Source: an uncultured virus (IMG/VR IMGVR_UViG_3300027704_003386) (lineage: Duplodnaviria > Heunggongvirae > Uroviricota > Caudoviricetes). Taken from it: a stretch of 20,000 bases of DNA. The stretch lies in the IMG/VR virus record IMGVR_UViG_3300027704_003386. One strand, 5' to 3'. A program made the translations under genes and the position numbers. Of this stretch, positions 2,115-18,549 are shown piece by piece. The notes below the pieces were generated by a model. That model was not told the origin of the DNA, ran no database searches, and saw only the letters and a program-made list of their open reading frames with translations. How positions within the stretch are numbered: position 1 is the stretch's first letter; every line of letters begins with the position of its first letter.

Positions 2115-3035
2115 TTAACATTGGTTGCTATGGTAGTGTTCTTCTTTATCTTCTGTTAAGATAGGATTGAACCAGAAGTCATATACTTTTGTTGCCCAGT
2201 GTTTATGTGCTTTTTCATCGTAGTGATGATCTTTTGCATGTTCAGAAATCTTCATATCTGGGTTTTGTTTCATATGTCCATAAAAAGACCTATCGTGATC
2301 TAAAAATGCATAGTGGTATTTACTATCTTCTCTATACATCCTTAATAGGTTTATATAAGTTTTTTTAATCGGGTGGTGAGCATAGGCTTTAGGAATATAA
2401 TCAAAACCGGGTAAACTATTTATAGTATTTCCATGATACTTTTGTATATTTAAACTTTTTAGCCAGTGATTCATACTTACTATCTTCTGTAGCATAATAT
2501 AGTCACTGAATAAGTTATCAAATAACATAACTTTTGCTTTTTTTAATTCACTTAAATTTAGTATATACTCAGGAGTTAAATTTTCTAAGCGATTAGTATC
2601 CAACGCAGGTGATAATGATATGAGTGAGTTATGTGGGTAAAGTTGATCCAGACCTTCAGGTTTACTTTCGTCTTTAGGAACGTATACTTCATACCTATCT
2701 ACACCACTCCAAAATAATATTACAATAATATCTTCTGGTAGATATTTCGGTTTCCTAGATTCTGCGTTTTTACCTTGTTCCGGTACTGAATCAAAATCTT
2801 TTTCTTCTCCTAGTATAACATTATCAATAATCCAATCTTGAGTGGTTCTGAAGATAGTGTCATTACTAGCGCCGGGTTGGGCAATATTTACTACCTCTTT
2901 TGTTTTCAATAGGTCTCCTAAGTGTTTAGGCCATGCTTTATGGTAACAATTTGGTTGATAAACATATTCCATTTCTGAGCCTGCAGTATGACTGCATCCA
3001 TTTACTAATAAAATCTTATTCTTAAAATCCTTCAT
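2115..3035 (-). CDS. SGNH/GDSL-like hydrolase or acyltransferase (DUF6071-like)
   Basis: Block I-like LVNGCSHTAG, WP, block II-like NIAQPGASN and C-terminal DHHYDEKAH (His block). Abuts the upstream gene with a 0-bp gap. Confidence 0.7.
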   Translation of the reverse strand: MKDFKNKILLVNGCSHTAGSEMEYVYQPNCYHKAWPKHLGDLLKTKEVVNIAQPGASNDTIFRTTQDWIIDNVILGEEKDFDSVPEQGKNAESRKPKYLPEDIIVILFWSGVDRYEVYVPKDESKPEGLDQLYPHNSLISLSPALDTNRLENLTPEYILNLSELKKAKVMLFDNLFSDYIMLQKIVSMNHWLKSLNIQKYHGNTINSLPGFDYIPKAYAHHPIKKTYINLLRMYREDSKYHYAFLDHDRSFYGHMKQNPDMKISEHAKDHHYDEKAHKHWATKVYDFWFNPILTEDKEEHYHSNQC

Positions 3036-6000
3036 TTATTCTATTACGATATTAGGTAGTTCAATAGGCGGTACTCTACTCTGTGTTAATGTTACCGGTC
3101 TATCCTTTTTACGGTACATTTCATGTATTGTAGGTTTAGTAATTACTTTGTCTACTTCTACTGAGGTTATATTACCCTGAAGTTCAATAGTATCTTGAAA
3201 ACTTAAATCTCCGTGTTCATTATCTCTTTCCCATTTAAGTATATCTTCCATTTTAGGAGTTTGTCCTTTATGTTTAAACTTATGATATAGGTTAAATTTA
3301 AATGTACCGTCTGATTCTACTCTAACTTCCATACTACTTGCATAATTTGTTGCAATACTCCCCCAAGACATAATATCTTTTTCTGGTTCAAAATTTATTA
3401 CCAGTTCAAAAGAGTTAAATATTCGGTAAAGACCATATATAACTGAAAAGTATTCATTAGAAAGGTAAAGACTCTGAGCTGAGTATGATGGAACTTCTTT
3501 AATAAGAGCAAAATTTAAGTTATCCTCTTGGGGAATATAATCTGGATGTTCAAAGTTTCCTAAGGTCTTAAAGGTGTAGCAATCTTGGATATCACCATGC
3601 CTTTGAGAATTACTTACTTTGCTTTCAGTAAATGCATTGAGGATTTCCATCCAGATATGAAACATTTTAACTCTTATAAATCTTGTCATCTTAGTATTAC
3701 GGTAACCTGTGGTATACCAATCCCCTAAAAATTGATTATCCCATACTTTCTCTTTCCAAGCTATATCGTAAATTGCAAACCTTTCCTGTAAGTCACTTAA
3801 AGCACTTGGGCCACATCCCATACCAGGTGATAGTTCATGTATACTGTTTCTTGTATTATATATTAGTATATTACTATGGTAGTAGTCAATGTACTCCTCT
3901 GTTGGGAAACCAATTAACCAGTTTACATGTGTAAATATAGTGCCGGTATTGTAAGTATCCCTAAGGTTATTTTCTATTTCCCATATTTGTATTTTCTTAC
4001 GCATATCGTTTAAGACCTTCTGGCTGCCTGATTCTACTCCGTAGCTAAGTGCTGTACATCCAGATTTTGCTACCGTATCTAAAAACTCTTTATCCATTCT
4101 ACCGTCACATCTGCTATAGCTATTCCACCCTATATTTAAATTATTAGCTATAATAAGATCGACTAACTGTCTAAAACTTTTAATATTTCCATTAACAAGA
4201 CTGTCGACGAACCAAAAACGTTTAACACCGTAGTTCTCTACGTGGTGTTTCATTTCTTCAACTGTACGTTCTGGTGCCATTGATCTAAATTTCCAGAAAT
4301 AAGTCTCTGCGCAGAAGCTACATTGAGCAACGCATCCTCTTGAGGTTTCTATGCTAATACCGTCTTGATGTAGGTATGAAGTAAGGTCATAATCTTGAAA
4401 ATCAGCATAAGCTTGATCATCAAGGCTTAGTCTACTATCTGTGCTACCTATAGTTTTACCCATTAGTGGAAGGGTCTCTTTAAATACTTCATTATCTAAA
4501 AATTCTAAGAAACTTTCTTCTGATTCTCCTTTAAAGAAGTAACTAACGTACTTAGCAAATTGAGTTTTCATCATGTTCTCTTCTGTGGCTACTGCGGGTC
4601 CTCCTGCTATAATAATGACGTCTGGGTCTAATTCTTTTAATTTTTCTATTAGTACTAAACTAGCATTGGCATTAGTAGTATATAGACTAAGGCCTATCAT
4701 AGTAGGTTTATCAGAAAGCATTTTAACTGCTGCTGCGTGTAGGTACTCCTCAATTTCTTTTAATAGGTATTCATTAAAAAACCATTTGTCTTCCCAAAAG
4801 AAAAACTTCTCTGAAGCCCAGTAGTCTTGACCTGTTCTTTTGAGTAAGTTATGATATAACTGTACATTTAAGTCATATACCTTACATGCATACCCTCCTT
4901 TTCTTGCAGCTCCTACAATTTTAGAGAGTCCATATGGAGGAAAAATTACTCCCCAGGATGGGCAGATTGTAAAGACTAACCTTTCTTTACCGTTGCTTGG
5001 AGTAAAATCTCTGAGAGCTACAGGTTCTTCAAAATCGTGGTACTTTACATTACCGGGACGTCCAATATGAGCTGATGCATGCCCTAGAGAATCTTTTTTC
5101 TCTTTATCAACCTTCATTATGTGTTTAACTATAAGTTGATCCCTGTCTCCAGATAAATTTTCTAAAGCATTTGTTCTTTTTAGTTCGTTTTCATCAAAGA
5201 CTGGTTCATCTAGATATTCAGATTCGGGAGTAAACCCTGTTAATATTGTATCATGTGGTAGATGTCTTTGTAGTATATAGAAACTTTCTTTTAATTTTTT
5301 TCTTGTTACAAAGGTATTAGTAAAATCTGTAGCATAAATATTAGAAATATTAATAAATGCATTTTTACTTTCAATCTTACTAGTTAATTCTGTCGGGTCG
5401 TTAATTAGGTCGATCGTAGTAAATTCAACATTTGCTGCCCTAAAGGCTTTAAGGTACTCTACTGTCTTCTCTATACCTCCAAAATGTTTATAACTTTCGT
5501 TAATGTTATTATGGAAATCCTCAGTGAATGTTTCTTCTGGTAAGTATGCGAATACTTTCTTACCTGATATTTGAAATTGAGACCTATGTTCAAAAGTTCT
5601 AATTAGTTCCTCTATATCTGTTTCAGTAGAATTCTTTATTAATTTAATCCATTCTAAACTTTTACTGTTAAAATCGTAGATAATTAATTTTCCGTTTTCC
5701 CTTAAGAGGTTACTTTTAAATGGTTCTAAAAATTTTAATCCTGCTGCTGGAAGTACAATGGTATTGTAAGTCCTATCTGGATGTTTATCAGATAGTACCA
5801 TATTCTCTGAGTTTGTTAACCAGATTTGATCTTTAACATTAGACCCTAGAGCAAGAAGTTTTCTCTGGTTGATATTAAGTGAAGGATCTGTAGTCTTATT
5901 ATTTAAGCATTCTAAAAATTTATCTGAATTGCTTTCAGGGTAGTAGTACGTTCTTTTATTTCTTATTTTTTGGGACCAATTCAGTACGTCAAAGTTATTT

Positions 6001-6572
6001 TTTATACTCTCACTCAGGATATTCCATCCCTGTTTGGAATGGGACTGTTTTTCTTCTTTACCTGTTCCCTTGATCCACAGAGGAGTGTAGTCGTCATGAA
6101 AATTCTCTACACTTCTTTGTATAACAGGAAGTATACTGCTGTTCATACCCCATCCTCCGTAAAGAGGTTTATTACTTTTAGACCAATTCTCTGTATTAAC
6201 TAACACAAATTGATGGTGTATTTCATACCAATGCTCTTTCCACTCTAAGATATGGCCTGCAACCATATAATTTGGATTATTGTTTATTTCATTATTTATA
6301 TCAAATATTATAGTACTATCAAAAATTCTTGCTCCTGCTGCTATAAATAAGATATGGTCATACTTTTCATGTAGTCTCTGGAGTCCTATATCAATGCTTT
6401 GGTGAATTTCAATTTTAAAGGGAGTACTACAAATTGTATTCAGTCTTTGGATATAGAACTTAGTAAAATCAACCATTTTATCAGCTAGATCAAAATTAGT
6501 TAATGTATCTGCAGGGAAGATACAAATTCCTATCTTGTTTGTGTTTTCAAATGTATCTTTAATATAGTCCAT
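3036..6572 (-). CDS. Multidomain fusion: N-terminal GT-A-like and Rossmann-like regions plus a cobalamin-binding radical SAM enzyme (class B methyltransferase-like)
   Basis: B12-binding domain motifs PPYGLSKI, MIGLSLYTTN and IIAGGPAV; radical SAM motifs IETSRGCVAQCSFC (about 4311-4334), FVDS, GVESGSQKVL and LIGFPTE. The N-terminal ~460 aa assignment is tentative. Confidence 0.85.
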   Translation of the reverse strand: MDYIKDTFENTNKIGICIFPADTLTNFDLADKMVDFTKFYIQRLNTICSTPFKIEIHQSIDIGLQRLHEKYDHILFIAAGARIFDSTIIFDINNEINNNPNYMVAGHILEWKEHWYEIHHQFVLVNTENWSKSNKPLYGGWGMNSSILPVIQRSVENFHDDYTPLWIKGTGKEEKQSHSKQGWNILSESIKNNFDVLNWSQKIRNKRTYYYPESNSDKFLECLNNKTTDPSLNINQRKLLALGSNVKDQIWLTNSENMVLSDKHPDRTYNTIVLPAAGLKFLEPFKSNLLRENGKLIIYDFNSKSLEWIKLIKNSTETDIEELIRTFEHRSQFQISGKKVFAYLPEETFTEDFHNNINESYKHFGGIEKTVEYLKAFRAANVEFTTIDLINDPTELTSKIESKNAFINISNIYATDFTNTFVTRKKLKESFYILQRHLPHDTILTGFTPESEYLDEPVFDENELKRTNALENLSGDRDQLIVKHIMKVDKEKKDSLGHASAHIGRPGNVKYHDFEEPVALRDFTPSNGKERLVFTICPSWGVIFPPYGLSKIVGAARKGGYACKVYDLNVQLYHNLLKRTGQDYWASEKFFFWEDKWFFNEYLLKEIEEYLHAAAVKMLSDKPTMIGLSLYTTNANASLVLIEKLKELDPDVIIIAGGPAVATEENMMKTQFAKYVSYFFKGESEESFLEFLDNEVFKETLPLMGKTIGSTDSRLSLDDQAYADFQDYDLTSYLHQDGISIETSRGCVAQCSFCAETYFWKFRSMAPERTVEEMKHHVENYGVKRFWFVDSLVNGNIKSFRQLVDLIIANNLNIGWNSYSRCDGRMDKEFLDTVAKSGCTALSYGVESGSQKVLNDMRKKIQIWEIENNLRDTYNTGTIFTHVNWLIGFPTEEYIDYYHSNILIYNTRNSIHELSPGMGCGPSALSDLQERFAIYDIAWKEKVWDNQFLGDWYTTGYRNTKMTRFIRVKMFHIWMEILNAFTESKVSNSQRHGDIQDCYTFKTLGNFEHPDYIPQEDNLNFALIKEVPSYSAQSLYLSNEYFSVIYGLYRIFNSFELVINFEPEKDIMSWGSIATNYASSMEVRVESDGTFKFNLYHKFKHKGQTPKMEDILKWERDNEHGDLSFQDTIELQGNITSVEVDKVITKPTIHEMYRKKDRPVTLTQSRVPPIELPNIVIE

Positions 6573-7236
6573 TGAATGTTGTATTTACAGCTTCTGCCAT
6601 AATATTAGGATTAACCTCCCCATGGAGTATTAAGTGTATTCTTTCTTGGTCTGTATTATTATATACTGCGTGTATGTTACCTATATCGGGGAATACACCT
6701 CTTCCTTTTTTAAAAGGTACAACTCCATAGTCTTCAAATACAAACTCACATCCTTCAGGATTGTTTAAAGCAATATTAAAAGGGCCGAATATTCTAGTTT
6801 TACCGTCTTTATGTGGCATAATGTATCCTCCTGGTGCTAATTTCATTAACCTTACTCTTTCGTATGTTATAAAATTTAAGTTTTTAATAAACTGTGTTAT
6901 TTTTGGTACATATTTACAGACATCTGTCCAAGTATAATTTGCCTCCTCTATACTTTTAAATCCATATCTATCATAGTTCTCAGTTTTATCATAAGATATA
7001 CCGTGTAGTGTACAAGATTCCCAACCTTGATGTGAGTAAGAACCTTTTGAATCTTTTGCTCTATGGCTTGTCCAGAATTTACTAGGTAGCTCTATTGCTT
7101 CCTTTTCTAAAACATCAAAGTCATCTTTGAAATCTAAAAAAGCATAGGGCCAGTCTGATTCCCATACATTATTAGGTATATGTTCAGGTCTCCATATTTT
7201 TGTATGGTTTTCAGTGTAGAATTTACTTCGGATCAT
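6559..7236 (-). CDS. Aspartyl/asparaginyl beta-hydroxylase-family 2OG-Fe(II) oxygenase
   Basis: RVRLMKLAPGGYIMPHKD (HxD) ... HAVYNNTDQERIHL (distal His and the 2OG-binding Arg), typical of the double-stranded beta-helix oxygenases of this family. Confidence 0.85.
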   Translation of the reverse strand: MIRSKFYTENHTKIWRPEHIPNNVWESDWPYAFLDFKDDFDVLEKEAIELPSKFWTSHRAKDSKGSYSHQGWESCTLHGISYDKTENYDRYGFKSIEEANYTWTDVCKYVPKITQFIKNLNFITYERVRLMKLAPGGYIMPHKDGKTRIFGPFNIALNNPEGCEFVFEDYGVVPFKKGRGVFPDIGNIHAVYNNTDQERIHLILHGEVNPNIMAEAVNTTFNGLY

Positions 7237-8254
7237 ATAAGTTAATTTGTTTAATACCGGTTACTTTAGTCCAAACCTCTTTGTTCCATTTTGTTTTAAT
7301 ATTTTCACTATCATCTAAAGCCGGGTAAGAGGGGCCTACAGGTAAATGCCATTTTTTAATATCTGGTTCATAATCGGTAAAGGTATTATCTAATATAATA
7401 CGGCCTAACTTATATCTACCTAAAGATAATTTATAATAGTCTTCAATTGGTACTTTATCCTGTACTGATGGTTTTAATGTGAGGTACCATGTATAAAAAC
7501 TCTCTCTTATAGAGTCCGACATATCTGGGCCAAAGTTTAACCAAGTCTCTGGAGCGAATCTTTCTTGAATTCTTATTTCATCTCGATCAATAACATCCCA
7601 GTCGTTTTCAGGTGCTACTGATAAGTAGTCTTTACCTAATGTGTTGTAACCTGTATAGAGTCCTCCCCATTCGAAACTATCACCTAAAAATAACTTATCT
7701 AGTAGGGTAACTGGTTCAAACTTACCTACTGGTAAAAAATCATATATGCAACTAAAGTTAGGAAATTTATGTTCATCACTATGAATAGCTGTTTCAATCA
7801 TATGAATAAACTCATTTAAATTAAGAAAAGCTTCGTGTAGTTCCATACTCCAGTAGTAGTAGACTCCACTAACTTCATCTTTGCCTTTTTCTTGTAGTTC
7901 CTCTATCCTATCTCCGTATACCTCAAACTCTTCATGTAAAAAGTTTAAAACCGTATTATCCAGTTCTTCTACGTTTGTAAATATAGGTAATTTACTATCG
8001 TATTCTGAATTTAGAGTTGTGTAGTTCTTATTAATGAATACTAGTATTTCATTAATTTTTTCCATTAGTTTACCTATATTATCAAAATCGTTATTGGTAA
8101 TTCTAGTTTTTATTTCTAAATCTTCCTCTAATGATTCTTGAGTCATTTTAAACCATCTATCCACAATAGGGTTATTTGGGAATAGGTAGTATGATAATAT
8201 TAATGGAGAATTATCTTCGGTTTTAAATTTTATTTTTATAATCCTATTTGGCAT
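7223..8254 (-). CDS. Hypothetical protein, possibly metal-binding (His/Glu helical motifs)
   Basis: 343-aa ORF overlapping the next gene by 14 bp. Motifs LNFLHEEFE, LHEAFLNLNEFIHMIE and LYTGYNTLGKD; no family recognised. Confidence 0.75.
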   Translation of the reverse strand: MPNRIIKIKFKTEDNSPLILSYYLFPNNPIVDRWFKMTQESLEEDLEIKTRITNNDFDNIGKLMEKINEILVFINKNYTTLNSEYDSKLPIFTNVEELDNTVLNFLHEEFEVYGDRIEELQEKGKDEVSGVYYYWSMELHEAFLNLNEFIHMIETAIHSDEHKFPNFSCIYDFLPVGKFEPVTLLDKLFLGDSFEWGGLYTGYNTLGKDYLSVAPENDWDVIDRDEIRIQERFAPETWLNFGPDMSDSIRESFYTWYLTLKPSVQDKVPIEDYYKLSLGRYKLGRIILDNTFTDYEPDIKKWHLPVGPSYPALDDSENIKTKWNKEVWTKVTGIKQINLYDPK

Positions 8255-8265
8255 AACTTTTAATT

Positions 8266-9255
8266 TTATTTAAGTTCTGAATGAAGTTTTGATTTTGAAA
8301 TAAACATATCTGTAGCACAATGGCATATGTCTACATTACAGGTGACAGCTTTAGTTGGCCATTGGACCTCTTGAGGGTTATCTAAATGACCTATGATGCC
8401 ACCTACTATACAGTTTCCTCGTTCTATATGACCAGTAGTACCTATAAAAAGACTTTCTAGACCTATATTACATTTCCAGCCATTAAAGTTTGTAAGTCCT
8501 TGATTTATCCATTCAACAGGACTAATATTATCAGTATCATAAGCTGTATCATTTTCATCAATTAAAAGAGCTTTCATCGCTGGACTAGAATCTACCTGAG
8601 TTTCCATTCTTCCAAACTGACTGCTTTTAATATCTCCAAACCATTCTAACTGCTCCGGTGAGTAATCAAAAGCATATTTAGCTACCCCTTTATATGGAGT
8701 AACTTTTACACTTTCATAAGAAATTGTAGGGTTTTTTGATAATCTTTTAATAAGAGCTTTTGATTTATCCCACAGTTTAGGGTCTGCATGCATCATAACT
8801 CTAACGGGTGAAGTACTTATAGGGTTTGTAGTTAATACTTTTTCTATAAATTCTTGATCGTTAGTATACTCCGGATGGTAAGAGTAAGCAATATAATTTA
8901 AGTCATGTGCTATTTTTTCCATATACTTAACGGGTTTTACTCCGTTAGTGGTTATACCCACGGTGTTTCCTGAGTCTTTAATCATTCGAATAAATTCTGG
9001 AAAGAAAGGAGACATGGTTGGTTCTCCTCCGGAAACACTCCAATGTGAAGATTTATACCTGTTTATTACCGTCCGAATAAACTCTTTAGCATTTAGCCAA
9101 TCGTAGTTATGGTTAGTCCCTGCATAAAGTGATGGAAGGCAGTAGGTACATGCATTACTACATATATTATTCATCACCCAAGTGACCTGGAGGGTGCTAG
9201 GTTCTAAATTAACAATCTTCTTAAGGGGCTGTAATGCTGATTCTGTGCTTTTCAT
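8266..9255 (-). CDS. Radical SAM enzyme with C-terminal twitch/SPASM-like auxiliary Fe-S domain
   Basis: CSNACTYC (CxxxCxxC), SGGEPT and TTNG; C-terminal CNIG...GHIERGNC...CNVDICHC. Confidence 0.9.
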   Translation of the reverse strand: MKSTESALQPLKKIVNLEPSTLQVTWVMNNICSNACTYCLPSLYAGTNHNYDWLNAKEFIRTVINRYKSSHWSVSGGEPTMSPFFPEFIRMIKDSGNTVGITTNGVKPVKYMEKIAHDLNYIAYSYHPEYTNDQEFIEKVLTTNPISTSPVRVMMHADPKLWDKSKALIKRLSKNPTISYESVKVTPYKGVAKYAFDYSPEQLEWFGDIKSSQFGRMETQVDSSPAMKALLIDENDTAYDTDNISPVEWINQGLTNFNGWKCNIGLESLFIGTTGHIERGNCIVGGIIGHLDNPQEVQWPTKAVTCNVDICHCATDMFISKSKLHSELK

Positions 9256-9265
9256 ATATTATATA

Positions 9266-11889: not shown

Positions 11890-11905
11890 ATTAATAAATA
11901 TCCTC

Positions 11906-13321: not shown

Positions 13322-14742
13322 TAGTTTACTAATATATGGTGATAATTATCTAAAGAATCTTTACTAATAACTTTATACCCGCAAGTAGTTAGACCATCTT
13401 TATGATAACCGGTTCCTGATTTATAATAACTATCTAAATACTTAAGTTGGTTATTCCTACTAGACCAACTTACCCAGTACCCATCTTTATATCCATTTTC
13501 TGTATGAGGTAATACTTCAAATCTACCTTTTCTTCTGAAAGGTATTGGTCTTTTGACGTCTGGTGTTTTATGAATATCTACTTGTTCACAATTTACTACG
13601 GTTCCGTTAGCAGATTTTTTTAAATCTATAAGCTCCCCAGAATCTACAAATTTACAGTCGTAATATGATGATAAACTCAAGCCTGATTCTAAGCCAAATA
13701 AACTCCTATTGGTATTATTTCCTAACTGTAGGCATTCCCTTTCTGTTAAATCTGTATTATAAGTAGCAAAAGTATCTATATTTCCTTTAAACCAGTTTCT
13801 TCTTTCTTCCCTATTGGGATCTCCTACTCCTAAGTAGATATATTTTGACTTCCTTAAATTTGATAGTTTATCAAATGCATTTTCTCCAACTAGTTCTCCA
13901 TTAATGTACATCTTAACAGTAGGTGGCATAAAATCATCAGTATTTTCATTGAGAGTTTTACTTCTTACAGTAATTACAGCATTATATCTACCTGCTCTTA
14001 ATCCTTTTGTAGGTAAAGATATAGACTCTAAATTCTTTTTCCAAAACTGAAATGTCAAGTCAAAAAAGGAATTAACAGTTAAAGTTGTATCAAACCCTGG
14101 TATGCTAAATATTGAGTTGTTATCTGAGATTTGATGCTGATTAGTATTTATTTCATCGTAACTAAAAGATACGAATATAGAAAAATTTCTTGAACTATTC
14201 AACTTGTTAGGTATTGCAACATAACTATCTTCACCATTAAATTCTAATGCTGTTGCTGCTCTTGCTTTTTGTACTGTTTCATTACCGTCTAATGCAATAT
14301 GGTTTTCCAAACAACGGAGCAGTAGGTTATCATCTTCAAATCCCCATCCTTGGTATAAGTTGGTATACCCGTTTATTTGTTTAAATATACTTACAGGAAA
14401 AAGAGTCACACCACCAAAGTATTCATCAAAGAGTGTCCTAGATACTCCTTGAGGTAAATCCAAATCGGTAATTAAGTGAAGAGGTTTATCCGAGTAGCTA
14501 TAGTCGACATCTATGGGCAACATGTCTATATCGTGAAATACTACATAATCACAACCTAGTTTCTCAGCTTCTTTGAATCCTATATTTAAAAGCCTTCCCC
14601 TATTAAATTCTTTCTTACCTTGTTGGTCGACTATAATTAATTCAAAGCTAATATCAGTAATATACTGATTAATACTTTCTCTAAACTTAGTTAATTGGTC
14701 TGGTCTATTTCTATAAGGTACAATTATACCTAATTTATGCAT
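13321..14742 (-). CDS. GT7 (beta-1,4-galactosyltransferase-like) glycosyltransferase with internal LamG/ConA-like domain (paralogue 1); start corrected to 14742
   Basis: MHKLGIIVPYRNR aligns with MKHKLGVCVPYRNR of the paralogue, so the true start is the ATG at 14742 (8-bp overlap with the upstream gene) rather than 14787. Motifs FNRG, FHDIDMLP, YFGGV and GWGFEDDN; LamG region (LEFNGEDSY...MYING...FKGNID); tail GRFEVLPH...DGL. Confidence 0.9.
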   Translation of the reverse strand: MHKLGIIVPYRNRPDQLTKFRESINQYITDISFELIIVDQQGKKEFNRGRLLNIGFKEAEKLGCDYVVFHDIDMLPIDVDYSYSDKPLHLITDLDLPQGVSRTLFDEYFGGVTLFPVSIFKQINGYTNLYQGWGFEDDNLLLRCLENHIALDGNETVQKARAATALEFNGEDSYVAIPNKLNSSRNFSIFVSFSYDEINTNQHQISDNNSIFSIPGFDTTLTVNSFFDLTFQFWKKNLESISLPTKGLRAGRYNAVITVRSKTLNENTDDFMPPTVKMYINGELVGENAFDKLSNLRKSKYIYLGVGDPNREERRNWFKGNIDTFATYNTDLTERECLQLGNNTNRSLFGLESGLSLSSYYDCKFVDSGELIDLKKSANGTVVNCEQVDIHKTPDVKRPIPFRRKGRFEVLPHTENGYKDGYWVSWSSRNNQLKYLDSYYKSGTGYHKDGLTTCGYKVISKDSLDNYHHILVN

Positions 14743-14965
14743 TCTTTTTAGACTTAGACGGTTTAGACTTAGTTGTTGAAGCTTCATCTATGTACTGCTC
14801 TTTCCAGAGACTAAGATACCATGCCATTCTATCTCCCCAGCCTTCTTTGTCTATTTCTTCAAACCACATAGTTAGGCTATCTAAAGATAAGGATATTTTT
14901 TCTAGGGCTCTAACTTTACGTTGTTCTAATACTATATCGTCTGCTTTTTTGTCTATTTTACTCAT
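14735..14965 (-). CDS. Small Trp-rich helical hypothetical protein
   Basis: 76 aa with an ATGA 4-bp overlap with the upstream gene and an 8-bp overlap with the downstream gene, consistent with translational coupling. Confidence 0.75.
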   Translation of the reverse strand: MSKIDKKADDIVLEQRKVRALEKISLSLDSLTMWFEEIDKEGWGDRMAWYLSLWKEQYIDEASTTKSKPSKSKKNA

Positions 14966-15804
14966 ATTTTAACTATTTTATTTGTTAATGTACTCCATTT
15001 AGAGTAGGTAGAATAACCAATATACGAACTTTCAATTAAGTTCTCAACTAAATACTCCGATTTTTTTAAGTCGAATTTCATATCATTATCTGCTATTGCA
15101 TCATACATATCTCTATACTCATACCAATGTTTGTAGTTATCTTGCATTTTAGAACACCATAGTAATCTTTCTAAAATAGTAGAATCCCACTTAAAATGAT
15201 GAACCTGTGTAAAGCATTCTTCTACAGGCATTCTTTTAGGGTGAGTTATCCCCCAACTGTTACTACCGTTATTAAAATCAGCGTAATGTTGTCCATCCGT
15301 TACATCTTGATACCCTTTCATTAAAGTTACTTTATTAGGACAGGCTCCAGACATTGGATATCTAAAAAAACCGGCATTAGGAAATAACTTATGAATATCC
15401 GTATCTCTCGGTACTTTGGGGAAAGTACCATTAGTACCTATTCTATCTAAGAACCCTCCTGTGACAAAGTCATATCCTTTGTTATCACAGTGTTTCACTA
15501 TACTTTCAACTGTGTCTGGGTATATTTGTAGTTCATCGTCATCAGCTACTATCCACCAGTCATTTGGACGGGACCTTTTTACTTCGTTATAAATCTTAGT
15601 TACTTGATACCAGTTAAATTTATCATCAACTACAACCTTATATGGTTTAATATTTAACTCTTCTAATTCATTCAGAACTCCAATATGCTGACGATCGGTG
15701 TAAACACAGAGATATATCTTATCAACCATATTCTCGTAATGCTTTAACATATGCGGTAATATGGGGGTATTGTACCCGACTACTGTAACTAGGTTAATCT
15801 TCAT
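14962..15804 (-). CDS. GT-A glycosyltransferase, Glyco_tranf_2_4/GT2-like
   Basis: ILPHMLKHYENMVDKIYL...DWWIVADDDEL (DxDE-type motif)...K...GQH...VHHFKW, the layout typical of this family. Confidence 0.8.
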   Translation of the reverse strand: MKINLVTVVGYNTPILPHMLKHYENMVDKIYLCVYTDRQHIGVLNELEELNIKPYKVVVDDKFNWYQVTKIYNEVKRSRPNDWWIVADDDELQIYPDTVESIVKHCDNKGYDFVTGGFLDRIGTNGTFPKVPRDTDIHKLFPNAGFFRYPMSGACPNKVTLMKGYQDVTDGQHYADFNNGSNSWGITHPKRMPVEECFTQVHHFKWDSTILERLLWCSKMQDNYKHWYEYRDMYDAIADNDMKFDLKKSEYLVENLIESSYIGYSTYSKWSTLTNKIVKI

Positions 15805-16699
15805 ACCAATCTCCTCCTGCTGCGTCTAATGTTTCTCCCGGTACTTCATTCAATAAAAAATCACCGTAAGTGTTTTCATCCCAATCTCCATCAAAAAAAT
15901 GTAGTATATACTGGTTAGGGCTATTCTTATGTATTGGGTTTCCTCCTCCTTTTTCATACCAATCAGCGTCAGTATCTACTTCGTAGAAGTAAACTGTAGG
16001 GGTCGTAAGTATATTAGAAGTTGCTGCATAATCATCTGCATCTAACATACCACTTATTTGTTTATTCATTTCTTGATATAGCTTTAATGAAAAAGTATGT
16101 ACCCCAAAAGAATTTAATATGGTATTACCTTTTCTTTTAAATCCTAAGTCTAAAATCTCTAAAAATAACCTGTATTCTTTTTTGGCAAAAATTACTGCGT
16201 TATTTAATTTAGGTATAACTAAACCGTATTTGTTATAGTGGTACTCGTATACTGTCTTTTCTTGACCTACAATAATATCATAAGAATTCTGTATTTTAAG
16301 TTCTGGAGCTATATGCCAATCGGAGAAAGGGTAGTCATCTCTTACTATAGTAGTAAGGTTTAGAAATTCATCTAAATCTCTTTTTATAACTGTATCCATA
16401 TCTAAATATAAACCCCCATAAACATAAAGTATCATTAATCTAGCGCAATCTACTTTTTTAATTACTCCTGTTATTGTCTTATATTCTTCTAATCTTTCAG
16501 GAAAATGTTCCTTTATCAAAGTAAGAACAGTAGTTTCGTTCCATAATGTATACCCCCAACCTTTTTTATCGCAGAAGTCTTTATGGCTATTAGAGAACTC
16601 TATATAATCTTTATTTCCTATGCATCCTATTCCGTAATTGCTATCTGGTTTCTGAAACCAAATTTGATGTATGTGTTTATTAAAGTTTTCAATTAACAT
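15794..16699 (-). CDS. GT32-like glycosyltransferase (Gly_transf_sug, OCH1/capsular polysaccharide synthesis-like)
   Basis: KHIHQIW...WGYTLWNE...KVDCARLMILYVYGGLYLDMD...NNAVIFA...ILHFFDGDW. Confidence 0.88.
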   Translation of the reverse strand: MLIENFNKHIHQIWFQKPDSNYGIGCIGNKDYIEFSNSHKDFCDKKGWGYTLWNETTVLTLIKEHFPERLEEYKTITGVIKKVDCARLMILYVYGGLYLDMDTVIKRDLDEFLNLTTIVRDDYPFSDWHIAPELKIQNSYDIIVGQEKTVYEYHYNKYGLVIPKLNNAVIFAKKEYRLFLEILDLGFKRKGNTILNSFGVHTFSLKLYQEMNKQISGMLDADDYAATSNILTTPTVYFYEVDTDADWYEKGGGNPIHKNSPNQYILHFFDGDWDENTYGDFLLNEVPGETLDAAGGDWYED

Positions 16700-17633
16700 T
16701 ATAGAGTGGTTTTAAATTATCTAAATACTGAGGGAAGTTATCTTCTAACATTTTTTTATGTCTTTCTAAATAAAGTATTAAATTATTAGAACTATGTCTA
16801 TTAAAGTTTACTGTTTCTTCTTTTAGTTGGTGTTTAAAAGACCAGGTATGATCAAACCCTATTGACTGTACTAATGGATTATCATCTATAACAGTCCATG
16901 AATCTCTAATTTCTTTTTCTAAAGGTAAAAATTTAAGGTTACTAAAGGTACCCCATTCTATATTTTCAGTTTTCATCATCATCATTAGTAGACGTTGATC
17001 AGCAAATAAATACTGTACCTGAGATAGATGAGGATCCTGTACATTATTTAATAGTTCAAACTGCATTGCTTTATCAGCATATTTCTTTTTAAATTCTGGG
17101 TTATTAAAGTATAGGATGCTTGTGTTACATACTTCATCATCCCAATTCCAATCGTCATCATATTTAAATCCTTCTACTTTTAATTTATCTTTATCAGGGT
17201 AGTAGTAGGGATTAATTTCTTCTAAGTGTGCAAATCTAACATCAGCATCCCATAGTTCGTCAGGTATAGGGGTGTATATTAAATTATCATGATCTAAAAG
17301 AACGAATGGACATTCTAACTCTCCTATTAACCAGGTTTTAAAGGCAGTCCAGTTATTAACTGAGTTAATATTTAGTTTGTTGAACTGTTTAGTTTTACTA
17401 GTATCTATTTTATCCCAGTATATATCATATCCTAATTTTTCTAAGTAACTCTTAAATGTATCATCTGTGTATAAGTGTATTTCACCAATATGTTTTTTAT
17501 ACATTAGTGCTGATAATATAAAGTGTAAGAGTTCAAAATTAAACATAGAGTATGTTTCCATACTTTCTTTTGTATGGTGTCCTGCTGTTCCTGTTAATAC
17601 AGGGTTAGACCAATAAGCATGTACTCCTATCAA
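16689..17633 (-). CDS. DUF6734-like putative nucleotide-sugar transferase (paralogue 2); TTG start
   Basis: VHAYWSNP...FILSAL...LYTD...WTAFK...PFVLLDHD (DxD)...NTSILYF...FADQRLL...FDHTW. The TTG start overlaps the TGA of the upstream gene (TTGA). Confidence 0.7.
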   Translation of the reverse strand: MIGVHAYWSNPVLTGTAGHHTKESMETYSMFNFELLHFILSALMYKKHIGEIHLYTDDTFKSYLEKLGYDIYWDKIDTSKTKQFNKLNINSVNNWTAFKTWLIGELECPFVLLDHDNLIYTPIPDELWDADVRFAHLEEINPYYYPDKDKLKVEGFKYDDDWNWDDEVCNTSILYFNNPEFKKKYADKAMQFELLNNVQDPHLSQVQYLFADQRLLMMMMKTENIEWGTFSNLKFLPLEKEIRDSWTVIDDNPLVQSIGFDHTWSFKHQLKEETVNFNRHSSNNLILYLERHKKMLEDNFPQYLDNLKPLYNVN

Positions 17634-18487
17634 TTTTTAAGTTCTTTTAAAGGTTCTAAGTTTAACTCTGGTTGGTTTTTTAATATGTTATAAAGTGTTT
17701 TATACTCTTTAGTATTCTTGTCTTTTCTGATTATAGGCTTATCCATCCAGTAGTGCTTAAAGTATAGTTCGTGATTAGGAGGTGCTATAATACCTTTCTC
17801 TGTTGCTCTAAATACCTTAGTTTCGCATACCCATTCTTGTTTCATTAGAGTAGTATACTCTACTCTATGGTAATCTAATAGGTGTCTCAAGGTAAGTTGC
17901 TCAGCAAAAATAAGAAAAGTAGAATTTGGAGCTTTTAATTTAGTAAATCTCTCCATCATCTCTAAACTAAATTGAGCATAACTATTTGCGAATTTATAAT
18001 CAGGAAAGTAACAAAAGCTACAATTTATCGCTTGGGGTACAGGTCTAGATATCATATCTGATATTTCTGCTATAAAAGGATCGTTTGCTGTAGGATAGTA
18101 CATTGTTCCGTCTTCTTTATGAGTAAAGACAGGTTTATCGTTTAACATTTCTGATATGTTCTTATATATCAAGAAATCATTATCCATTACTATAGTTGGT
18201 TCTTTTATATTCCTTAGTACTTCTAATTTACTAGAAGCCCAAAATACACTCTTGTCAATAAAGGTATTTATTGCTAGATTTTTTACTTCATCCCAAAGGT
18301 CTAAAGCATTGAGTGTTTTAAGAAAGTCTTTTGTTGATTTATCGCAGTATAGTATACAAGTATCATTAGGATGATTCTTCTTATATAAAAAAACAGAGCT
18401 CAATAGTAATAAACTATCAAGCTTAGTATAAAAGAGATGTTTCTCTTTATCTGTCTTTATGTTCTCTAATACCCACAGTACTTGCAC
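17630..18487 (-). CDS. DUF6734-like putative nucleotide-sugar transferase (paralogue 1); GTG start, first gene of the operon
   Basis: LLSSV...LYCD...WDEV...FWASSK...PTIVMDND (DxD)...NCSFCYF...FAEQLTL...FKHYW; same motif order as 16689..17633. Confidence 0.7.
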   Translation of the reverse strand: MQVLWVLENIKTDKEKHLFYTKLDSLLLLSSVFLYKKNHPNDTCILYCDKSTKDFLKTLNALDLWDEVKNLAINTFIDKSVFWASSKLEVLRNIKEPTIVMDNDFLIYKNISEMLNDKPVFTHKEDGTMYYPTANDPFIAEISDMISRPVPQAINCSFCYFPDYKFANSYAQFSLEMMERFTKLKAPNSTFLIFAEQLTLRHLLDYHRVEYTTLMKQEWVCETKVFRATEKGIIAPPNHELYFKHYWMDKPIIRKDKNTKEYKTLYNILKNQPELNLEPLKELKN

Positions 18488-18514
18488 AACCTATTGTTTT
18501 AACTATTATAACCA

Positions 18515-18546: not shown

Positions 18547-18549
18547 TTA

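Follow-up and report, generated by a model that had tools for sequence, protein, structure and literature searches.

Between a tail fibre gene and the tail sheath gene of an uncultured marine phage related to Flavobacterium phage immuto, ORF calling on the window (the whole 20,000-nucleotide stretch that was analysed) yields 14 closely spaced minus-strand ORFs at 2115-18487, here termed the island (Table 1). They encode six GT-A-type glycosyltransferases and four radical SAM proteins, of which one is B12-type; the other four products are an Asp/Asn hydroxylase, an SGNH-like protein and two proteins without an assigned function. As an observation, the island of the preliminary description is real: 14 co-oriented genes with junctions overlapping or at most 16 bp apart, the placement between fibre (S74 C-end) and sheath (Phage_sheath matches), six GT-A/DxD-type proteins (two DUF6734, one Gly_transf_sug, one Glyco_tranf_2_4 and two GT7), four radical SAM enzymes with one B12-dependent, and a 2OG-Fe(II) hydroxylase (Asp_Arg_Hydrox match) were all recovered. 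A possible seventh GT-like domain was not, as neither residues 1-600 of the 1178-aa protein nor the 343-aa protein matches any GT family. The interpretation that went with the observation is, as a whole, partly supported.

In the direction of transcription the junctions are -4, -11, -11, -4, -53, -1, +16, -1, +10, +11, -14, -14 and 0 bp; a start of the first GT7 gene at the in-frame ATG at 14740-14742, which is likely the true one, would cut the 53-nt overlap to 8 nt. Co-orientation is uninformative and not special in this genome, because 219 of its 227 ORFs share one strand, and with 136 of 218 junctions genome-wide at 16 bp or less tight spacing is common. The island's 13 consecutive tight junctions make up the second-longest run in the genome, the longest (16) being the genome's other sugar cluster, which has a CMP-sugar synthetase fusion and further GT2 genes.

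The complete fibre ORF has 654 aa (genome 81559-83523); it is at once the upstream flank of the island and the first member of the conserved block described below. Its neighbour p181 has no match in Pfam, PHROG or NCBIfam. In p149, for which no counterpart was found in the immuto genome, N28 is at least 90% conserved and mostly followed by x-S/T (alignment A2), and N-x-S/T density is 2.7 per 100 aa (genome 90th percentile, 1.68); it is a candidate both for an accessory protein of the fibre and for a glycan acceptor. At the other end the sheath is 63% identical to that of immuto. The ORF directly upstream of the immuto sheath gene shares 42% identity with p83, which clustering places in 33 of 78 loci.

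Table 1. Features of the window, in order of position
Feature	Position	Strand	Basis
Tail sheath, downstream flank; ORF extends beyond window	3..1709	-	Phage_sheath_1, Phage_sheath_1C; PHROG 23 E 6e-72
p83, backbone gene before sheath, outside island	1824..2075	-	immuto homologue, synteny
DUF6071, SGNH-hydrolase-like putative esterase/acyltransferase	2115..3035	-	PF19547 32.2 bits vs cut-off 27
1178-aa fusion, domain X (~1-600) + B12-binding radical SAM (~603-920)	3036..6572	-	Pfam B12-binding, Radical_SAM
Asp/Asn beta-hydroxylase-family 2OG/Fe(II) oxygenase	6559..7236	-	PF05118 50.2 bits vs cut-off 22.6
p343, orphan protein	7223..8254	-	ORF only
Small radical SAM, 329 aa, variable cargo	8266..9255	-	PF04055 E 5.5e-11; PHROG 13987
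N-twitch radical SAM b (NF033640)	9266..10573	-	NCBIfam 370.6 bits vs cut-off 170
N-twitch radical SAM a (NF033640)	10573..11889	-	NCBIfam 351.9 bits vs cut-off 170
GT7-LamG b, B4GalT-type catalytic domain split by LamG/pentraxin-like jelly-roll	11906..13321	-	profile, AF2 fold
GT7-LamG a, beta-1,4-galactosyltransferase-type, LamG inserted	13321..14787	-	Glyco_transf_7N, Glyco_transf_7C, Laminin_G_3 over cut-offs
p76, small charged conserved protein	14735..14965	-	position, conservation
GT2-type Glyco_tranf_2_4 (GT2_4), strongly conserved core gene	14962..15804	-	PF13704 27.0 vs cut-off 27.5
Gly_transf_sug (DXD), Och1/GT32-like	15794..16699	-	PF04488 E 2.4e-12
DUF6734 b, second GT8-like paralogue	16689..17633	-	PF20508 43 bits vs cut-off 27
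DUF6734 a, GT-A of GT8-like fold	17630..18487	-	PF20508 24.9 bits, under 27-bit cut-off
p149, Ser/Thr/Asn-rich beta-type protein	18550..18999	-	weak Ig_7 match
p181, conserved fibre-companion, no known family	19002..19547	-	position, conservation
Tail fibre C-end, Peptidase_S74 intramolecular chaperone	19563..20000	-	PF13884 E 5.8e-18; PHROG tail-fibre families

Enzymes of the island

Both GT7 enzymes are complete animal-type beta-1,4-galactosyltransferase folds interrupted by a LamG insert. For paralogue b the profile retrieves B4GalT1 (E 6.1e-48) and B4GalT7 (E 1.4e-44) from the PDB, and its AF2 model (pLDDT 91) aligns by VIA with B4GalT1 (Z 27.9, rmsd 2.0, 215 aa over model 1..471) and, at about residues 164-396, with the LamG domain of PAPP-A (Z 21.6). 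An invariant DxD and the G137/D140 columns are common to a and b (alignment A1). The most conserved island gene is b; searches with it gave 286 viral stretches and 1649 protein clusters, and no match among GenBank phages. The AF2 model of DUF6734 protein a (pLDDT 94.4, pTM 0.92) has glycogenin as its best Foldseek match (E 4.7e-7), together with UGGT, LgtC and LARGE1; D102 and D104 are invariant, and protein b is 21% identical to a (alignment A3). (The folds of glycogenin, LgtC and UGGT are all GT8-type GT-A.) Protein-directed enzymes are among the nearest folds, namely B4GalT7 (38-39% identity), glycogenin and UGGT, which favours the fibre-protein reading given below; for DUF6734 the likeness is distant (TM about 0.4-0.5), which weakens that point. 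The GT2_4 protein falls just below the Pfam cut-off; its orthologues match PF13704 in 32 of 32 scanned (best E 1e-8), with D88 and D90 invariant and a mean column identity of 73%. For the Gly_transf_sug protein, phmmer against the PDB gives an initiation-specific alpha-1,6-mannosyltransferase (E 5.5e-4).

CxxxCxxC is present in each of the four radical SAM proteins (at 137 in N-twitch a and at 32 in the small enzyme). The two N-twitch proteins share 25.8% identity; across 172 sequences C7, C26, C67, C70, C126, C130, C133 and GGEP 197-200 of b are invariant, and a has four N-terminal Cys that are invariant in the family alignment. In a bacterium (G102), members of this family lie inside an ABC-type O-polysaccharide cluster with WbsX, a TylF-type methyltransferase, RmlC and RmlD as neighbours, one copy being fused to Wzt plus the carbohydrate-binding Wzt_C, and in another genome (G173) a copy adjoins a GT2 gene and an NDP-sugar epimerase gene. 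Among cellular contexts of the family only the surface-polysaccharide cluster of G102 is informative, which speaks against a virion acceptor. The small radical SAM belongs to no specific family; every NCBIfam match is far below cut-off. In the 1178-aa fusion the B12-binding (37.7 bits, cut-off 32.1) and Radical_SAM (52.1, cut-off 29.5) matches are clear of their cut-offs, and the best NCBIfam matches, rSAM_ocin_1 (a RiPP C-methyltransferase family; 118 of the 282 bits required) and PhpK (110 of 600), are below theirs. Domain X (residues 1-600) has no PDB or GT-family match; it is fused to the hydroxylase in one distant phage (L041) and adjoins a hydroxylase and a B12-radical SAM in another (L044).

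The hydroxylase, 40% identical to the C-terminal domain of the 635-aa L041 fusion, scores 16 bits against an LpxO model with a cut-off of 500. That the terminal protein is SGNH-like, as had been proposed, is moderately supported by its DUF6071 score above the Pfam cut-off, by invariant G13, S15, N58 and H271 among 16 relatives, and by four weak PDB matches, three of them SGNH/GDSL-type. Neither p343 nor p76 has a match in Pfam, PHROG or NCBIfam, and for p343 the Atlas gave no usable match (own model pLDDT 0.32).

Recurrence in related viruses

Of 286 viral stretches, 80 loci were retained and compared; they were picked by GT7-LamG similarity, so that the presence of GT7-LamG in 80 of 80 is by construction, and many of the absences of other genes are contig ends. 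The order fibre, p181, p149, DUF6734, GT2_4, p76, two GT7 enzymes, one or more N-twitch radical SAMs, variable genes and sheath is constant, the sheath standing at its end. GT2_4 is present in 75 of the 80, p76 and N-twitch radical SAM in 76 each, DUF6734 in 62, p181 and p149 in 59 each, and a fibre homologue precedes the block in 55; p181 always lies between the fibre gene and p149, and p76 is always immediately upstream of the first GT7 gene. The glycosyltransferase front half is therefore a widely conserved cassette, not private to the phage here, and its recurrence in other viral loci is new. GT7-LamG b, at 57-74% identity across loci, is about as conserved as the sheath (53-78%).

The conserved core of the relatives includes a methyltransferase (Methyltransf_24, cluster c4), whose slot is taken here by DUF6734 b and the Gly_transf_sug gene, the latter present in only four loci. 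In their variable slot relatives have UDP-Glc/GDP-Man dehydrogenase, NDP-sugar epimerase/dehydratases, DegT aminotransferase, nucleotidyltransferase, GDSL or DUF6071 genes, and the back half here (small radical SAM, 343-aa protein, hydroxylase, B12-radical SAM fusion) is lineage-specific variable cargo. Linkage to tail genes, which the preliminary description had proposed to check, recurs in these loci, and the island is not a unit that only this phage possesses. The earlier statement that nucleotide-sugar biosynthesis is lacking holds for 2115-18487 and fails for the rest of the genome and for the same slot in relatives.

What is built, and on what

The product of the island is most likely an unusual sugar decoration bearing chemical edits, and its probable site is the phage's own fibre proteins. 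Our best guess (rough probability 0.45) is a soluble glycan-building and -editing module inherited with the tail-fibre genes and having a virion fibre protein as acceptor. The front half (GT8-like DUF6734, the GT2-type and the two B4GalT-type enzymes, whose acceptor lid would bear the lectin-like LamG insert) would assemble an oligosaccharide from nucleotide sugars, with the second DUF6734 and the GT32-like enzyme as additions of this phage. The N-twitch enzymes would then edit sugar C-H bonds via a 5'-deoxyadenosyl radical with help from an auxiliary Fe-S cluster, possibly by oxidation, epimerisation, deoxygenation or similar, and the private cargo (small radical SAM, hydroxylase, domain X/B12 fusion and SGNH-like protein) may add hydroxylation, methylation and acyl chemistry. 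The likeliest acceptor would be a structural protein of the same block, the S74 fibre, p181 or p149, glycosylated in the cytoplasm before assembly. What the analysis shows are the folds, motifs, synteny and solubility and the tie of the radical SAM family to glycan clusters; the sequence of the steps, the radical chemistry and especially the acceptor we infer. If true, the host-recognition apparatus would end up with a coat of glycan that varies. Glycosylation of mycobacteriophage capsid and tail-tube proteins, treated in part of PMC12619734, is a precedent. This reading draws on the glycosyltransferase identities, the tail-gene linkage across loci, the sheath-like conservation of GT7-LamG b, the sugar enzymes of relatives and the lack of membrane segments. 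Elsewhere in the genome, genes for nucleotide sugars, SAM synthetase, flavodoxin-fold and FNR-like proteins and an IscA-like Fe-S protein fit it too.

Tailoring of a RiPP-like peptide or protein, or production of a soluble metabolite such as a free glycoside, with the glycosyltransferases adding a few sugars at most, is improbable. The sugar enzymes in the relatives' variable slot and the N-twitch genes in an O-polysaccharide cluster indicate glycan chemistry instead, six glycosyltransferases point to a real glycan, and specific RiPP-maturase models are all far under their cut-offs. The best matches of the B12-radical SAM fit such tailoring, as does the joint travel or fusion of domain X, hydroxylase and B12-radical SAM in distant phages; in eukaryotes, moreover, the Asp_Arg_Hydrox family acts on proteins or peptides. 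The island and its flank include small ORFs of 76 and 83 aa, but p76 does not look like a RiPP precursor because it has no Cys; p83, a backbone gene common to immuto, also lacks Cys, and both resemble charged helical proteins.

A serious rival, though a doubtful one, is remodelling of the host envelope, in which the soluble enzymes act at the cytoplasmic face on undecaprenyl-linked intermediates of O-antigen, capsule or S-layer glycan and the host's own transporters export the altered product, blocking superinfection or adsorption of progeny to debris. No credible membrane segment occurs in any island protein or conserved cluster, which bears out the earlier claim of no obvious membrane protein and supports the soluble cytoplasmic line for building and tailoring a glycan. 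This fails to exclude host-glycan remodelling, because cytoplasmic-face O-antigen and capsule glycosyltransferases are also soluble, and the N-twitch contexts in G102 and G173 and the second sugar cluster fit it. Tail-module position alone is weak evidence, since T4-like marine phages are known to gather unrelated cargo in their fibre modules. Against remodelling, the island has no membrane segment and lacks an initiating phosphoglycosyltransferase, flippase, polymerase, ligase and ABC exporter; in dozens of phages it is fixed in a structural block beside fibre genes instead of lying with early or host-takeover genes; phages with sheaths only 53-78% identical should have different hosts and therefore different host glycans, yet GT7-LamG b is about as conserved as the sheath; and the investment is large for a lytic phage. 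Published work already describes hypervariable glycosyltransferase/radical-SAM regions in the fibre modules of marine myophages; passages of PMC7029224 read them as modifying the host O-chain, and a host-surface role is favoured in parts of the pelagimyophage and cyanophage papers (PMC7029224, PMC12801897). Regions of this kind are known, while no enzyme of the island is a characterised one.

That the glycans are built on modified bases of the phage genome, the other alternative raised earlier, is very unlikely. Radical SAM enzymes do occur in some thymidine hypermodification pathways. Phage glycosyltransferases able to assemble glycans of several sugars on DNA are also known (Pyle et al. 2024, as cited in part of PMC12619734). 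However, a separate 7-deazaguanine module at 124-138 kb (QueC, QueD, QueE-like, FolE, QueF and formyltransferase) matches the fdPreQ1 pathway shown for immuto, a phage with modified DNA but without the island; the whole genome, searched in all six frames, yields no thymidylate-synthase-like hydroxymethylase, as had been said of that hallmark (the control matched 10 of 14 genomes); and neither the LamG inserts nor the link to the fibre would make sense for DNA.

Promoter and terminator scans stayed at chance level and lend no support to late expression, a point against the fibre-protein reading. Eight island genes are touched by contigs from RNA libraries of two studies, a weak hint in favour of that reading.

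Gene content and genomic setting of the island

All ORFs of at least 140 aa in the window are on the minus strand and, in the direction of transcription, a tail fibre end is followed by two small proteins, the 14 genes of the island, a further small protein and the tail sheath (Table). Every gene junction within 2115-18487 is either an overlap or a gap of at most 16 bp, the lone 53-nt overlap being reduced to 8 nt if an in-frame ATG is used. CxxxCxxC is present in all four radical SAM proteins, and D-x-D in all six glycosyltransferases of the island. A preliminary description of this DNA, which had proposed a glycosylation and radical SAM operon acting on virion proteins, is borne out by family, fold and synteny annotation as to the reality of the feature and the way in which it was described. 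Its gene list holds for enzyme classes and packing, with the exception of a 'possible seventh glycosyltransferase-like domain', for which no support was found in either the N-terminal region of the 1178-aa protein (domain X) or p343.

Table. Features of the window in order of transcription, with the number of loci, among the best 80 of 286 relatives, in which each was found
Order	Feature	Position	Strand	Assignment	Loci (of 80)
1	Tail fibre, C-terminal end	19563-20000	-	S74 intramolecular chaperone	55
2	p181	19002-19547	-	small, no family	59
3	p149	18550-18999	-	small, no family	59
4	DUF6734 a	17630-18487	-	DUF6734	62
5	DUF6734 b	16689-17633	-	DUF6734	
6	Gly_transf_sug protein	15794-16699	-	Gly_transf_sug (DXD)	4
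7	GT2_4	14962-15804	-	Glyco_tranf_2_4	75
8	p76	14735-14965	-	76 aa	76
9	GT7-LamG a	13321-14787	-	Glyco_transf_7N + Glyco_transf_7C + Laminin_G_3	80
10	GT7-LamG b	11906-13321	-	Glyco_transf_7N + Glyco_transf_7C + Laminin_G_3	80 (by construction)
11	N-twitch radical SAM a	10573-11889	-	radical SAM (pair of 435/438 aa; NCBIfam NF033640, 371 and 352 bits)	76 (N-twitch)
12	N-twitch radical SAM b	9266-10573	-	as preceding	as preceding
13	Small radical SAM protein		-	radical SAM, 329 aa	1 (same phage)
14	p343	7223-8254	-	orphan, 343 aa	1 (same phage)
15	Hydroxylase	6559-7236	-	Asp_Arg_Hydrox	1 (same phage)
16	Domain X/B12-radical SAM	3036-6572	-	1178 aa; residues 603-920, B12-binding radical SAM enzyme	1 (same phage)
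17	DUF6071	2115-3035	-	DUF6071	4
18	p83	1824-2075	-	83 aa	
19	Tail sheath		-	tail sheath	35

An IMG/VR virus record of 177,020 bp, rated complete by CheckV, holds the window on its minus strand at 83,086-103,085. As 219 of the 227 ORFs in the genome are on one strand, co-orientation of the island genes is not informative. Genome-wide, 136 of 218 same-strand junctions (62%) are at most 16 bp, and the island's 13 consecutive tight junctions form the second-longest run, the longest (16) being that of a second sugar-gene cluster at ~159 kb. The structural backbone is of T4 type (Gp23, Portal_T4, prohead protease S77, gp19 tube, gp25 and Terminase_6N) and is collinear with that of the closest cultured relative, Flavobacterium phage vB_FspM_immuto (sheath 63%, capsid 69%, tube 76% and baseplate hub 68% identity); the host of this immuto-like lineage is probably among the Flavobacteriia. 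In immuto the last fibre gene and the sheath gene are only ~2.4 kb apart, with a lysozyme gene and small ORFs in between, and while p83 and the sheath have counterparts there, the stretch from the S74 fibre end through DUF6071 has none.

When 186 other ORFs of the genome were annotated with Pfam, the second sugar cluster (stretches L016:8331-19795 and L017:10792-12471, genome ~159-172 kb) was found to have a GT1 gene, three GT2 genes, an NDP-sugar epimerase/dehydratase, a Methyltransf_24 protein, an HMGL-like/CMP-cytidylyltransferase fusion, an MptE-like (Maf-type) protein and a 2OG oxygenase; a UDP-Glc/GDP-Man dehydrogenase lies apart from it, at ~138 kb. Also encoded, by Pfam, are a SAM synthetase, an IscA-like Fe-S assembly protein, a flavodoxin-fold protein and an FNR-like reductase, and, with them, a serine hydroxymethyltransferase (L015:13731-14681, L017:13678-14007 and L008:6270-8898), all plausibly in support of the phage's six radical SAM genes. 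The phage has GroES and GroEL homologues of its own together with Hsp20 (L015:9165-11133) and, near the left genome end, adjoining DUF6580 and DUF5074 proteins (L008:10187-11718).

Fourteen DNA sequencing runs from eight studies (2017-2025; marine, seawater and sponge metagenomes) contain at least 99% of sampled words from 9000-18990, all 14 being flagged as possible sources of the assembly itself. Among RNA data, four libraries from two studies yield contigs that are identical or nearly identical to the window over the sheath, from the fibre through p181 to p149, and over parts of eight island genes. They hint only weakly at transcription of the island and allow no inference on its level or timing: the matches are assembled contigs whose depth cannot rank genes, uncovered parts of the island are uninterpretable, and DNA carry-over is possible. 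Regulatory signals are not above expectation (the T4 late motif TATAAATA with 5 matches against 6.2 expected, sigma-70-like sites with 84 against 89.8, and terminator-like sites with 4 against 7.0), and so do not help to place operon borders or the timing of expression. Contigs from three RNA runs join 16385-16406 to 19601-19621, skipping 3194 bases, but at this 16406>19601 joint no more than 21 letters match per side and the ends beyond are loose; it is uninterpretable and probably due to a related phage or to a short motif in common. In two RNA libraries of one study (X16 and X17), long fibre-p181-p149 contigs end at 18465-18513, within the 62 bp that precede the first DUF6734 gene or slightly beyond, and a terminator-like hairpin is present at 18423-18397 on the minus strand; transcription might be attenuated within 18397-18565, where structural genes give way to enzyme genes.

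A conserved cassette and its lineage-specific cargo

Relatives of GT7-LamG b were confirmed on 286 IMG/VR viral contigs, of which the best 80 were kept (57-74% identity, full length; two being the same phage) and searched by tblastn with the window proteins, many of the absences in the resulting counts (Table) being due to the end of a contig. When the 78 other loci were clustered de novo and their gene orders mapped, one order recurred, that of fibre, p181, p149, DUF6734, a cluster termed c4, GT2_4, p76, two GT7-LamG genes, N-twitch radical SAM, variable genes, p83, sheath and tube. Cluster c4, present in 65 loci, is a Methyltransf_24 methyltransferase whose position is occupied in the window by the second DUF6734 gene and Gly_transf_sug. 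The front half of the island is a widespread, conserved cassette tied to tail-fibre genes. In relatives, the variable stretch holds up to six N-twitch paralogues (236 copies across 74 loci), a UDP-Glc/GDP-Man dehydrogenase in 21 loci, NDP-sugar epimerase/dehydratases, a DegT aminotransferase, a nucleotidyltransferase, GDSL and DUF6071 proteins and several unknown families. A single-protein scan with p181 gave matches only in the same phage.

The synteny survey for which the preliminary description had called has in this way been run, and links glycosyltransferase genes to structural and tail genes in the loci kept. Its '16-kb operon' is divided by the gene-order maps into a conserved glycosyltransferase cassette and lineage-specific tailoring cargo. 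Similarly, the reported lack of nucleotide-sugar biosynthesis is accurate for the window but does not extend to relatives, in which sugar-nucleotide genes are found in the same slot.

Glycosyltransferase and radical SAM cassettes of varying content are accordingly found among fibre genes, with the front half fixed and the back half variable, and such cassettes, as a hypervariable region in the fibre module of marine T4-like myophages, are already published (PMC7029224, in the part available). In pelagimyophages and cyanomyophages, the portion of that work which could be consulted (Zaragoza-Solas et al. 2020) places a hypervariable 'host recognition' region inside the tail-fibre module, where glycosyltransferases, radical SAM cassettes and LPS-type sugar genes are gathered; GT8 is the glycosyltransferase family most represented, an Asp/Asn beta-hydroxylase is common, cassette gain or loss separates close relatives, and the function proposed, on the host O-chain, is speculative. 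The phage considered here is likewise a T4-like marine myophage with glycosyltransferase, radical SAM and sugar cassettes in its fibre module. It differs, on the same partial text, in its immuto-like lineage and in a front half that is fixed and strongly conserved instead of hypervariable, and the GT7-LamG and N-twitch enzymes are not described in the sections available. A T4-like environmental genome with 12 radical SAM genes is also on record (PMC5332604, excerpt). As far as the literature search reached, there is no published account of the cassette as a conserved unit, of GT7 split by LamG, of an association between NF033640 and glycan clusters, or of the module of domain X, hydroxylase and B12-radical SAM enzyme; none of the island enzymes has been studied so far.

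Within the cargo, the 1178-aa protein has, at ~603-920, the predicted layout of a class B (cobalamin-dependent) radical SAM enzyme, B12-binding domain (PF02310, 37.7 bits against a cut-off of 32.1) and then radical SAM domain (PF04055, 52.1 against 29.5; C747-x3-C-x2-C). It falls in no named subfamily, all 24 NCBIfam models listed being below cut-off and the closest, the RiPP C-methyltransferase rSAM_ocin_1 (118.2 against 281.85 bits) and PhpK (109.8 against 600), far under theirs. Its N-terminal ~600 residues, domain X, match no family and no PDB entry, and in the Atlas only viral hypothetical clusters (score 0.88), which is a lead only. On a distant phage contig, however, domain X is fused to an Asp/Asn hydroxylase 40% identical to that of the island (L041, 16017-17924), and in L044 (17891-21350) it adjoins a hydroxylase and a B12-radical SAM gene, both contigs having arrays of five to nine radical SAM genes; the fusion and the adjacency point to domain X, hydroxylase and B12-radical SAM as a linked sub-module moving between distant marine phages. 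The hydroxylase itself matches PF05118 (50.2 bits against 22.6, profile positions 3-152 of 157), found no match in a search against PDB and, at 16.3 bits against a cut-off of 500, is not the lipid A hydroxylase LpxO. DUF6071, with G13, S15, N58 and H271 invariant in 16 sequences (consensus GDSWT...GxSND...HP), appears to have an SGNH-like Ser/Asn/His pattern; in the block scheme of that superfamily we take the conserved Ser to be block I, the Asn block III and the His block V. Its PDB matches are weak (E 0.021-0.64), three of the four having SGNH/GDSL-type names (an acylhydrolase, a GDSL lipolytic protein and an acetyl xylan esterase) and the fourth being uncharacterised. No usable match to p343 was found in the Atlas, and it remains an orphan.

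Glycosyltransferase and N-twitch radical SAM families

The two GT7-LamG proteins match Glyco_transf_7N (63.5 and 62.1 bits, cut-off 27) and Glyco_transf_7C (69.6 and 50.3 bits, cut-off 23), and a profile built from 70 sequences of both paralogues finds B4GalT1 (E 6.1e-48) and B4GalT7 (1.4e-44) over its first 152 positions, with a second, weak matching stretch near the C-terminus. In the AF2 model, made for paralogue b only (pLDDT 91.0, pTM 0.79), the best Foldseek match is B4GalT7 (E 8e-14, 35-39% identity, rmsd 1.6 Å), with B4GalT1 also found; by VIA-align, 215 of 272 residues superpose on bovine B4GalT1 178-398 (Z 27.9, rmsd 2.0 Å), spanning model residues 1-471, and ~160-396 superpose on PAPP-A LamG and pentraxin folds (Z 18-22). 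Since the second span lies inside the first, the catalytic domain is evidently complete but split by a jelly-roll domain, a variant architecture when set beside the contiguous catalytic domain of all solved GT7 members; the split is presumably near the mobile acceptor lid of B4GalT1.

Across the same 70 sequences there is no variation at D74, D76, G137 or D140, and conservation reaches 90% or more at E139, D141, D142 and H408. We take D74/D76 to be the metal-binding DxD and the G137-D142 region to be the acidic catalytic stretch after W-G and, these residues being invariant or nearly so, both paralogues look catalytically competent. Likeness to animal B4GalT1 and B4GalT7 (CAZy GT7; PDB 1tvy, 2ae7, 4lw3 and 4irq) is at Z 26-28, rmsd ~2 Å and 28-39% identity, and extends to the DxD, the acidic G-x-E-D-D stretch and the Tyr before FGG. 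Unlike the animal enzymes, GT7-LamG proteins have a ~230-residue LamG/pentraxin-like insert in the catalytic domain, are without membrane anchor or stem, and are viral and cytoplasmic. Division of the enzyme by a lectin domain is an architecture new to GT7, a family on which most work has concerned animals. The cassette is abundant: public metagenomes have 1,649 GT7-LamG protein clusters at 90% identity (E <=1e-5), the best 120 of which have the same three Pfam domains and, as the sole name given, 'hypothetical protein'. None of 50,697 GenBank phage records has GT7-LamG, and no cultured phage among them has the cassette.

The AF2 model of DUF6734 (pLDDT 94.4, pTM 0.92) has a GT-A fold, with glycogenin (E 4.7e-7), LgtC (5.2e-6), UGGT and LARGE1 as best Foldseek matches at probability 1.0, though TM is no higher than 0.4-0.5 and identity 10-14%; neither D102 nor D104 varies. 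The low TM, together with a DUF6734 profile that has no match among PDB sequences, makes any relationship to GT8 distant, and on the model the DUF6734 proteins would be GT8-like GT-A enzymes, remote relatives of glycogenin and LgtC. GT2_4 of the window is just below the Pfam cut-off, yet PF13704 is found in all of 32 scanned orthologues, and D88 and D90 do not vary; a search against PDB gave no match. Gly_transf_sug weakly matches an Och1-type mannosyltransferase.

The N-twitch proteins score 370.6 and 351.9 bits on NF033640 (N_Twi_rSAM, radical SAM proteins with an N-terminal twitch domain; cut-off 170) over model positions 1-397 of 398, and C7, C26, C67 and C70, C126/C130/C133 and GGEP are invariant in 172 distinct N-twitch sequences taken from the phage loci, in keeping with the CxxxCxxC motif and the N-terminal Cys set, for a putative auxiliary cluster, of that family. 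In the phage arrays, with up to six paralogues, identity within one locus has a median of only 21%, a value suggesting old, functionally diverged copies and not recent duplicates. In cellular genomes the family is over cut-off in none of 14 controls and in 3 of 401 Pseudomonadota, one of the three being a 1.2-Mb MAG in which two contigs have ten copies between them; a scan of genome contigs with N-twitch b gave one locus only, in the same MAG. The N-twitch-bearing contigs of this 'Gammaproteobacteria' MAG (G001, contigs 3 and 12; L142-L150) are of 36% GC, and its N-twitch genes are probably phage DNA binned into it.

Informative cellular contexts number two, both glycan clusters. The first, in bacterial genome G102, has a WbsX glycosyltransferase, a Methyltransf_23 and a TylF-type methyltransferase and three N-twitch genes, with RmlD and RmlC nearby, and on contig 19 (L158:8579-11143) an 854-aa fusion of Wzt ABC ATPase, Wzt_C carbohydrate-binding domain and N-twitch radical SAM enzyme is a natural 'Rosetta stone' that links the radical SAM family to polysaccharide export. 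In the second, G173, an NDP-sugar epimerase/dehydratase, a GT2 and one N-twitch gene adjoin prophage recombination genes. These contexts are the best evidence that the N-twitch family acts on sugars or polysaccharides. The parallel has limits, for in G102 the N-twitch genes, with TylF, WbsX, RmlC and RmlD, are embedded in a Wzm/Wzt O-polysaccharide cluster, whereas the phage island is without Wzm/Wzt, initiating transferase or membrane component. No reaction is known for NF033640, and the literature search found no paper naming NF033640, DUF6734 or DUF6071 and none on a phage radical SAM system with a twitch domain.

Candidate acceptors of the glycan and parallels elsewhere

The island is a glycan build-and-tailor island, and the acceptor to which the evidence points most is a structural protein of the phage virion, at a probability of roughly 0.45. 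Favouring this are the fixed position behind fibre-p181-p149, a conservation of GT7-LamG b comparable to that of the sheath (57-74% against 53-78% identity), the lectin-like insert on the acceptor side of GT7, and the fold likeness to protein-directed glycosyltransferases (B4GalT7, glycogenin and UGGT). No membrane segment is present in any island protein or conserved cluster of relatives, and the island has no initiating transferase, flippase, polymerase, ligase or exporter. Counting against a virion acceptor, lipid-linked host glycans are likewise served by soluble glycosyltransferases, and the cellular context of the N-twitch family is surface polysaccharide; modification of a host envelope glycan, which is tentative here and on balance somewhat unlikely, is also the published reading of such regions, in terms of the host O-chain, in the portions available of PMC7029224 and PMC12801897. 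As to which virion protein, p149 is Ser/Thr/Asn-rich with an N-x-S/T at N28 that is mostly conserved, a feature that is not decisive. Separately, in the structural region, a 1815-aa protein (L012:2798-8245, genome 70798-76245) with 16% Ser, 13% Thr, 9% Asn, 43 N-x-S/T sites and no Pfam family is another possible acceptor.

A peptide or small molecule as target is improbable. The RiPP cluster, a candidate of this type, was rejected: all maturase models are below cut-off, p76 and p83 are without Cys or leader/core features, no plausible precursor was found, though a cryptic one may exist, and sugar-nucleotide genes occupy the same slot in relatives. Hypermodification of DNA is very improbable, as the genome has a separate 7-deazaguanine module and no thymidylate-synthase-like hydroxymethylase (PF00303 has no match in six frames of the 177-kb genome, the control matching in 10 of 14 genomes), and immuto modifies its DNA yet is without the island. 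Glycosylation of the hydroxymethyl-pyrimidine type was set aside on the missing PF00303 hydroxymethylase, and PF12851 (Tet/JBP) is uninformative, as it matched neither the genome nor the control. The 7-deazaguanine set (L014:7037-19339 and L015:3260-4165, genome ~124-138 kb) comprises QueC, a QueE-like radical SAM enzyme, QueD/PTPS, FolE, QueF and a PF00551 formyltransferase like immuto's DpdN, and matches the immuto pathway, which makes fdPreQ1 DNA (PMC10516641, excerpt). No DpdA was found for the module: PF01702 (TGT) has no match in the genome, and the 258-aa ORF between QueC and the QueE-like gene matches nothing in GenBank phages. A carbamoyltransferase gene (L014:9690-11351) is inside the set.

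Tailored glycans on virion proteins have precedents. In the chlorovirus PBCV-1 and mimivirus, soluble glycosyltransferases, sugar-nucleotide enzymes and methyltransferases build such glycans on capsid or fibril proteins with no need of host membrane machinery. These are eukaryotic giant viruses with enzymes unrelated to those of the island, and we know of no radical SAM tailoring in them. Mycobacteriophage systems, as set out by Freeman et al. in 2023, reportedly have few glycosyltransferases and no radical SAM enzyme, hydroxylase or LamG-split GT7. What the island shares with mycobacteriophage virion glycosylation is the linkage of phage glycosyltransferase genes to structural genes. Mycobacteriophage glycosyltransferases decorate the phage's own capsid and tail tube C-termini in the cytoplasm (PMC12619734 and PMC12801897, both as excerpts); those are siphophages with a Gram-positive-type host, and for the island virion glycans are a hypothesis.

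A more specific version of the virion-protein reading, unlikely when taken as a whole, is that the island writes radical-edited glycans on the receptor-binding apparatus of the phage. The B4GalT-type enzymes would dock via their LamG insert on folded fibre, p181 or p149 and, once docked, glycosylate the fibre protein in the cytoplasm, and each N-twitch paralogue would then edit a different C-H bond on the protein-attached sugars. If true, this would give the N-twitch family its first known reaction and be the first case of a glycoprotein whose glycans are tailored by radical chemistry after attachment, and swaps of radical SAM and tailoring cassettes would be a form of host-range or defence-evasion diversification parallel to fibre-tip swaps. 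A glycan on fibres would give marine host recognition a carbohydrate layer ignored by sequence-based host-range prediction; one on the host would mean that lytic marine phages remodel cell surfaces at large scale.

Distant N-twitch homologues are present in six GenBank phage records at E <=1e-3 (none at E 1e-10), and in three of these, Vibrio phages K566 and K567 and Ralstonia phage RsoM2USA, they cover 93-95% of the query at 20-21% identity. A sheath-like gene and an NDP-sugar epimerase lie upstream of the homologue in RsoM2USA, and in K566 radical SAM genes are interleaved with GT8 genes, the arrangement in K566 and K567 being rSAM-GT8-rSAM-rSAM. Distant arrangements of radical SAM and glycosyltransferase genes are present in cultured Vibrio jumbo phages, in which the question of virion versus host is approachable.
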